DNA of 64,000 nucleotides from assembly GCF_048403405.1 (NCBI RefSeq), contig NZ_CP183129.1. The stretch is one strand, 5' to 3'. Origin of the DNA: Escherichia coli (GTDB lineage: Bacteria; Pseudomonadota; Gammaproteobacteria; Enterobacterales; Enterobacteriaceae). The position numbers are program-made. This document shows positions 33,001 through 34,152 of the stretch, piece by piece. The stretch's first letter is position 1; each line of letters starts with the position of its first letter.

Positions 33001-34152
33001 GCACCAGCGAACTGAAATACTACGGTGAGAAAGTCGAGAACAAAAACCCTGGCAACAGCAGCCCGATAACTTCCGAAAGCAATACGGTCGACGGCAAATA
33101 CACGTTGCCGCTGACGGCGATTAATCAGTTTCTCACGGTTGGCGGTGAATGGCGTCACGACAAACTTAGCGATGCGGTGAACCTGACCGGGGGAACCAGC
33201 TCCAAAACATCTGCCAGCCAGTACGCGCTATTTGTTGAAGATGAATGGCGGATCTTCGAGCCGCTGGCGCTGACGACCGGCGTGCGTATGGACGATCACG
33301 AAACCTACGGTGAACACTGGAGTCCGCGTGCCTACCTGGTTTATAACGCCACCGACACCGTAACGGTGAAAGGGGGCTGGGCGACGGCATTTAAAGCACC
33401 TTCTCTGTTGCAACTTAGCCCTGACTGGACGAGCAATTCCTGCCGTGGCGCATGTAAGATTGTGGGTAGCCCGGATCTGAAACCAGAAACCAGCGAAAGT
33501 TGGGAACTGGGGCTTTACTACATGGGCGAAGAAGGCTGGCTGGAAGGGGTGGAATCCAGCGTGACCGTTTTCCGTAACGATGTGAAAGATCGTATCAGCA
33601 TCAGCCGTACGTCTGACGTCAACGCTGCACCGGGCTACCAAAACTTTGTTGGTTTTACAGCGAACGGTGTGCCGGTATTTAGCTACTACAACGTTAACAA
33701 AGCACGTATTCAGGGCGTGGAAACCGAACTGAAAATTCCGTTCAACGATGAATGGAAACTGTCGATCAACTACACCTACAACGATGGTCGTGATGTCAGC
33801 AACGGCGAAAACAAACCGCTATCCGATCTGCCGTTCCATACTGCTAACGGTACGCTGGACTGGAAACCGCTGGCACTGGAAGACTGGTCATTCTATGTTT
33901 CTGGTCACTATACCGGGCAGAAACGAGCCGACAGCGCGACGGCTAAAACACCGGGCGGTTATACCATCTGGAATACCGGCGCGGCCTGGCAGGTGACTAA
34001 AGACGTCAAACTGCGCGCAGGCGTGCTGAACCTTGGCGACAAGGATCTCAGTCGTGACGACTACAGCTATAACGAAGACGGACGTCGTTACTTTATGGCA
34101 GTGGATTATCGCTTCTGATGAGAAGATGCCCGGCGAACCGGGCGGACTTTCA

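Follow-up and report, generated by a model that had tools for sequence, protein, structure and literature searches.

A common, previously described loop variant of CirA in an Escherichia coli genome whose cirA gene is interrupted by a nonsense codon

The cirA gene of the 64,000-nt stretch of E. coli DNA analysed here (called the window in the following) is very probably, at a rough probability of 0.9, a carrier of the less frequent, though still common, natural form of the tip of loop 8, type 1 of the hypervariable region 2 (HVR2), in which TANGV takes the place of ETGANGRRI in a presumed pattern of mosaic evolution. The feature is ordinary surface-loop variation that has been described before, and nothing about it is new. 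The lesion of the window that affects function is a stop codon, W243*, not the loop allele.

The product of cirA is the catecholate siderophore and colicin I receptor, a TonB-dependent transporter. In the window the gene lies in the order lysP-cirA-yeiG-folE, the same as in K-12. It appears in the list of ORFs of positions 31500-36000 as two ORFs in the same frame, 32139..32867 and 33105..34118. Translated in one frame, 32139..34118 gives 660 codons including the terminal TGA, with a stop after residue 242 and a conceptual protein of 659 aa. The top PDB match of this protein is the colicin I receptor 2HDF (E = 0), and Pfam recognises in the intact 659-aa form a Plug domain at residues 44-152 (E 5e-34) and a TonB_dep_Rec_b-barrel domain at residues 221-632 (E 2e-63). 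A Fur box is expected at the promoter of iron-regulated cirA, and upstream of the gene the segment at window positions 31945..31969, GATAATTGTTATCGTTTGCATTATC, resembles the Fur-box consensus, GATAATGATAATCATTATC. The features of the gene are as follows.

32139..34118, + strand: cirA pseudogene, 1980 nt, 659 codons plus stop, with one internal stop
32865..32867, + strand: premature TGA at codon 243 (W243*), TGG -> TGA by G>A at 32867, from translation and alignment with K-12
33633..33698, + strand: CirA hypervariable region 2 (HVR2), type HVR2_1_0, after Cao et al. 2025 (PMC12175518, Data Sets S1 and S3)
33657..33671, + strand: short loop-8 tip cassette ACA GCG AAC GGT GTG (TANGV, T507-V511), from the codon alignment

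The cirA gene of K-12 MG1655 (b2155, NC_000913.3 2244778..2246769) has 1992 nt and codes for 663 aa, the length that the earlier note on this DNA had given. The same note had counted a reading frame of 659 codons in the window; the 659 aa are there, but the frame is open only if the TGA at 32865..32867 (codon 243) is read through. Alignment with K-12 CirA, the check that the note had named, thus sets 659 against 663 aa. The note had tentatively placed the difference at 33640-33680, and this location is right: a global DNA alignment contains exactly 12 gap positions, all between window positions 33656 and 33671. It also contains 29 substitutions in total, four of them in the cassette stretch. 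The K-12 counterpart of 33657..33671 is a segment of 27 nt, GAG ACG GGC GCT AAC GGA CGG CGC ATA, which codes for ETGANGRRI (E507-I515), and the replacement of this 27-nt cassette by the 15-nt one makes up the entire 12-nt length difference.

In the best codon alignment of the two cassettes, gaps open at three places (E; G; RR) and 5 of the 15 aligned bases are substituted, and there is therefore no single clean 12-nt deletion: a diverged cassette has been swapped for another in an almost identical gene. Of the four-codon in-frame indel that had been proposed, the 12-nt in-frame difference is real, but it is a cassette replacement rather than one indel. Outside the cassette, 25 of 1962 aligned bases differ from K-12 (1.3%), all of them synonymous bar the stop codon. 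At this background rate, the binomial probability of at least 5 changes in 15 nt is about 9e-7. Divergence from K-12 is concentrated in one short segment of an otherwise conserved gene, and the CirA protein of the window equals that of K-12 at all positions except residues 507-515 and codon 243. The window thus shares its lysP-cirA-yeiG context and its protein with K-12 CirA (b2155, 663 aa; PDB 2HDF, 2HDI and 9NN6), but its tip, TANGV instead of ETGANGRRI, is 4 residues shorter and devoid of E507, G509, R513 and R514, and the window copy has a premature stop at codon 243. The crystallised CirA (PDB 2HDF/2HDI) shows the same four-residue gap relative to the window at the cassette.

W243* leaves a 242-aa product that comprises, according to Pfam, only the Plug domain, with almost no beta-barrel. 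The exact 61-nt context of this stop is shared by just 4 genomes among the 5426 complete ones (strains 4621, MS 69-1, TUM1226 and OX030728). With strains 4621 and MS 69-1 the window has 24 kb of identical sequence in common, and in MS 69-1 the identical cirA sequence is annotated by RefSeq as cirA with 'internal stop'. The cirA gene of the sister genome TUM14771 differs from that of the window at 32867 only and is intact. W243* is a recent single-base inactivation of cirA. Because cirA is a pseudogene in this genome, the loop allele has no effect or phenotype here.

Three genomes with a short-allele cirA of ~99% identity have the gene split by the IS5-like element ISEc35 after about 370 nt, one of them being strain 23AR0303 (NZ_CP195442.1, 301..3340). 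With the ISEc35 insertion, cirA has been inactivated a second time, independently, on a closely related cirA sequence.

Losing cirA is known to lower susceptibility to cefiderocol and to colicins Ia and Ib. Its truncating nonsense codon makes the window gene similar to the cirA loss-of-function alleles that cefiderocol or colicins select, but this likeness concerns W243* and not the 12-nt loop difference. Premature cirA stops have been reported to contribute to cefiderocol resistance in E. coli (PMC9241927), and the cefiderocol literature that we examined, this report included, describes only truncations and point mutations and makes no mention of the four-residue CirA difference. When genotypes are called in cefiderocol or colicin screens, a CirA with this four-residue 'deletion' compared with K-12 should not count as a resistance or loss-of-function lesion. 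About one fifth of E. coli, O157:H7 among them, have the short tip as their normal allele.

This proportion comes from a search of 5426 complete E. coli genomes with an 87-nt query spanning the short cassette. Ungapped matches, which identify the short allele, were found in 1019 genomes (~19%), 159 of them at 99% identity or more and 860 at 95-99%. A further 4299 genomes match the query at 80-90% identity and only with a 12-nt gap, and these have the long allele. With a reciprocal K-12 query (gene positions 1457-1555, ending just 10 nt to the right of the cassette), 4383 genomes cover the cassette, with a query coverage of at least 80%, and 1039 match the left flank only; this query also separates the alleles, but the 87-nt query gives the cleaner count. 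The idea that the short cassette is confined to one clone or to one type of assembly is contradicted by its spread across ~1019 genomes.

Intact short-allele genes are found in several strains. O157:H7 Z1831 and CEC13002 code for an intact CirA of 659 aa (WP_000489254.1), O157:H7 Sakai has an intact 1980-nt short-allele cirA (ECs_3047), and the short-allele proteins of KKa019 and AREA_499 (WP_001563949.1) and of TUM14771 (WP_000489252.1) are likewise intact. The cassette DNA of Z1831, Sakai, KKa019, CEC13002 and AREA_499 is identical to that of the window. Among the 11 E. coli genes compared, the loop is strictly dimorphic, and the cassette DNA is invariant within each type. In the protein database, the short cassette is represented by an entry (P0001) that occurs on 117 contigs.

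The same dimorphism has been typed by Cao et al. (2025, Appl Environ Microbiol, PMC12175518), whose HVR2 corresponds to K-12 residues 499-524; we converted these to window coordinates through the codon numbering. The long type, HVR2_0, defined between residues 498 and 525, was found in 2235 of 2803 genomes (79.7%) and the short type, HVR2_1, in 565 (20.2%), with the tip TANGV in 560 and TADGV in 5 (PMC12175518). The TADGV subtype, HVR2_1_1, thus comprises five E. coli genomes, and subtypes beside the two major types are rare and differ by one residue (PMC12175518). HVR2_1_0 was assigned to Sakai NP_311074.1, WP_000489254.1 and WP_000489252.1 (PMC12175518), the last of which is the intact counterpart of the window gene. 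The window peptide is identical to HVR2_1_0, and the loop is no different in any respect; the window copy has W243* in addition and would therefore fall outside the intact proteins of that survey. The short allele is thus already published, and our estimate of ~19% agrees with the published 20.2%. The earlier note had suggested ordinary allelic variation in a surface-exposed loop, and both the frequencies here and in the survey and the probable position of the segment in loop 8 (see below) bear this out; since the difference is a common allele, as the note had allowed, there is nothing unusual about it.

The survey also classed CirA as mosaic, on the basis of RDP4 and of tree incongruence (PMC12175518), and our comparisons of loop type with gene background, made on a small set of sequences, would be compatible with this. 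The cirA gene of O157, with the short tip, has 16 differences from K-12, with the long tip, versus 23 from the window, with the short one. Backbone distances do not track the loop class, and each cassette sits on several cirA backgrounds. At two synonymous sites, 33623 (AAC/AAT, 34 nt upstream) and 33704 (GCA/GCT, 33 nt downstream), all four combinations with loop type occur among eight E. coli sequences. This pattern, which comes from these two sites in 8 E. coli genes, suggests recombination breakpoints very near the cassette, although recurrent mutation at 33623 and 33704 could also be its source. CirA resembles other outer-membrane proteins with mosaic loops (FhuA, OmpA, OmpC, OmpF and LamB) in that a conserved scaffold carries a few discrete segment types that are shared across lineages. 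It differs from them in degree: CirA has one multi-type region with two major types and cassettes of 15 versus 27 nt, whereas OmpC has seven regions with up to eight types each (PMC12175518).

Loops 7 and 8 of Cir are its longest; according to cryo-EM they lie over the barrel and swing open on hinges to admit colicin Ia and microcin V (PMC12511343). The key arginine cavity is made up of R436 in loop 7, R490 in loop 8 and R116 in the plug, and R513 is predicted to make a minor contact with microcin V, at E61 of MccV (PMC12511343). The Cir papers use precursor numbering, and C435/R436 agree with the precursor sequence. Judging by residue numbering and the published contacts, residues 507-515 would form the distal part of extracellular loop 8, since the 17-25 residues that follow R490 are too few to reach loop 9. 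R116, R436 and R490 are invariant columns in an alignment of 19 sequences that is headed by the intact short allele. R513 and R514 belong to the long cassette, and the short one has neither of them.

As the short tip is devoid of E507, G509, R513 and R514, it may change the docking of some ligands while receptor function is kept. Producers of colicins Ia and Ib inhibit STEC O157:H7 as well as K-12 (PMC6723558), and ColIa and ColIb are broadly active on the main STEC serotypes (PMC6465592). Because such producers inhibit O157:H7, the colicin I receptor function of the short allele is probably retained, the short genotype of O157:H7 being deduced from Sakai, Z1831 and WP_000489254.1. Transport is most likely unchanged by the short tip, given that the short allele is intact in major lineages. 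The docking of surface ligands, on the other hand, may be modulated by it. Natural variation of CirA between Salmonella and E. coli shifts sensitivity to colicin Ib (bioRxiv 10.1101/2024.06.29.601355), which makes an effect of loop variation plausible in principle. If the tips do differ in the docking of bacteriocins or phages, the allele could help to predict the sensitivity of strains to preparations of colicin Ia/Ib or microcin V.

The two tip forms are discrete cassettes, each without internal variation, in a protein that is nearly the same everywhere else. We favour the view that the surface loop exists as a few old sequence types that have been moved between lineages by local recombination. 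These types would probably be kept by ligands that dock on the loops, i.e. colicins Ia/Ib, microcin V, phages and antibodies, and the plug and the barrel, which serve catecholate-iron uptake, would stay under purifying selection.

A recent and simple origin, by which a K-12-like allele lost 12 nt in frame in this strain or clone alone, perhaps in connection with the decay of the pseudogene, would be conceivable in as much as the gene is a pseudogene here and its constraint might be relaxed. However, the two cassettes are separated by 5 substitutions and three gaps rather than by one deletion, some 1019 complete genomes with intact cirA, O157:H7 among them, share the cassette unchanged, and the gene of the sister strain TUM14771 is intact in spite of the same short cassette. 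The divergence of the cassettes, the presence of the short one in ~1019 genomes and the intact gene of TUM14771 rule out a simple recent deletion or a strain-specific lesion, for which we see next to no chance. A sequencing or assembly artefact at 33657..33671, for which nothing speaks, is less credible still, as the same 15-nt cassette is found in independent complete genomes from many laboratories, in the protein database and in a published survey; the independent genomes and PMC12175518 rule it out.

The two loop types might also be a neutral length polymorphism of a structurally tolerant turn, without effect on any ligand. Both forms are frequent and both are found in intact genes, Enterobacterales tolerate any tip length between 4 and 9 residues, to judge by its free variation, and colicin Ia/Ib producers inhibit both K-12, which has the long form, and O157:H7, which by deduction has the short one (PMC6723558). 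However, the changes cluster strongly in the cassette (P about 9e-7), and there are two discrete types without intermediates, which is unlike the usual outcome of drift in a neutral turn. In addition, the long form has R513, a predicted contact of MccV (PMC12511343), and colicin Ib sensitivity is altered by the natural differences between the CirA proteins of Salmonella and E. coli (bioRxiv 10.1101/2024.06.29.601355). We therefore regard complete neutrality as possible but rather unlikely. The proposal at the other end, that the loop-8 tips represent a balanced polymorphism across species, with the short tip, devoid of R513 and R514, altering susceptibility to microcin V, colicin Ia/Ib or a CirA-dependent phage and leaving the uptake of catecholates and cefiderocol unaffected, is in our opinion tentative, and in this strong form improbable. 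On that proposal, the short tip may be shared with E. albertii and the long one with E. whittamii, Salmonella and Citrobacter.

Both length classes indeed occur outside E. coli, and tips range from 4 to 9 residues across Enterobacterales:

9 residues: E. whittamii, Escherichia sp. E1V33 and 'E. coli E69', ETGANGRRI, with different synonymous sites
9 residues: Salmonella, ETNSRGQRV; C. freundii, ETNANGQRV
6 residues: Siccibacter and Pragia
5 residues: E. albertii, TADGV; Enterobacter, NADGE; Cedecea, Mixta and Erwinia
4 residues: Kluyvera

Compatible with our main explanation is an origin of the short cassette by recombination into E. coli from an E. albertii-like donor. The TADGV cassette of E. 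albertii (ACC GCA GAC GGT GTG) agrees with the short cassette of E. coli at 12 of 15 nt, with no gap; five E. coli genomes carry TADGV itself (HVR2_1_1; PMC12175518), and the other Escherichia sampled, E. whittamii and Escherichia sp. E1V33, have the long form. However, the flank of the E. coli short allele codes for PVFSYY (CCG GTA TTT AGC TAC TAC), as against PVFRYY (CCG GTG TTC CGT TAT TAT) in E. albertii. PVFSYY is common to both E. coli alleles and specific to E. coli, and PVFRYY is found in E. albertii, Salmonella and Citrobacter. With flanks that are E. coli-like, any imported tract would therefore be shorter than about 40 nt, or have since been eroded by recombination. The short cassettes of the two species, moreover, still differ at 3 of 15 nt, and many other genera also have short tips, of 4 to 6 residues, so that retention or convergence is also possible. 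All in all, we find such a donor conceivable but doubtful.

Two minor observations concern the comparison genomes. In one of them, strain 2013C-4974 (2139..2974), the annotation marks yeiG, next to cirA, as frameshifted, which is unrelated to the loop allele. A third short-type tip, TPNGV (ACA CCG AAC GGT GTG), which is absent from the subtypes listed in the published survey (PMC12175518), is present in E. coli SCPM-O-B-8794, a GTDB species representative (1837..1898), and is a single nucleotide away from TANGV.
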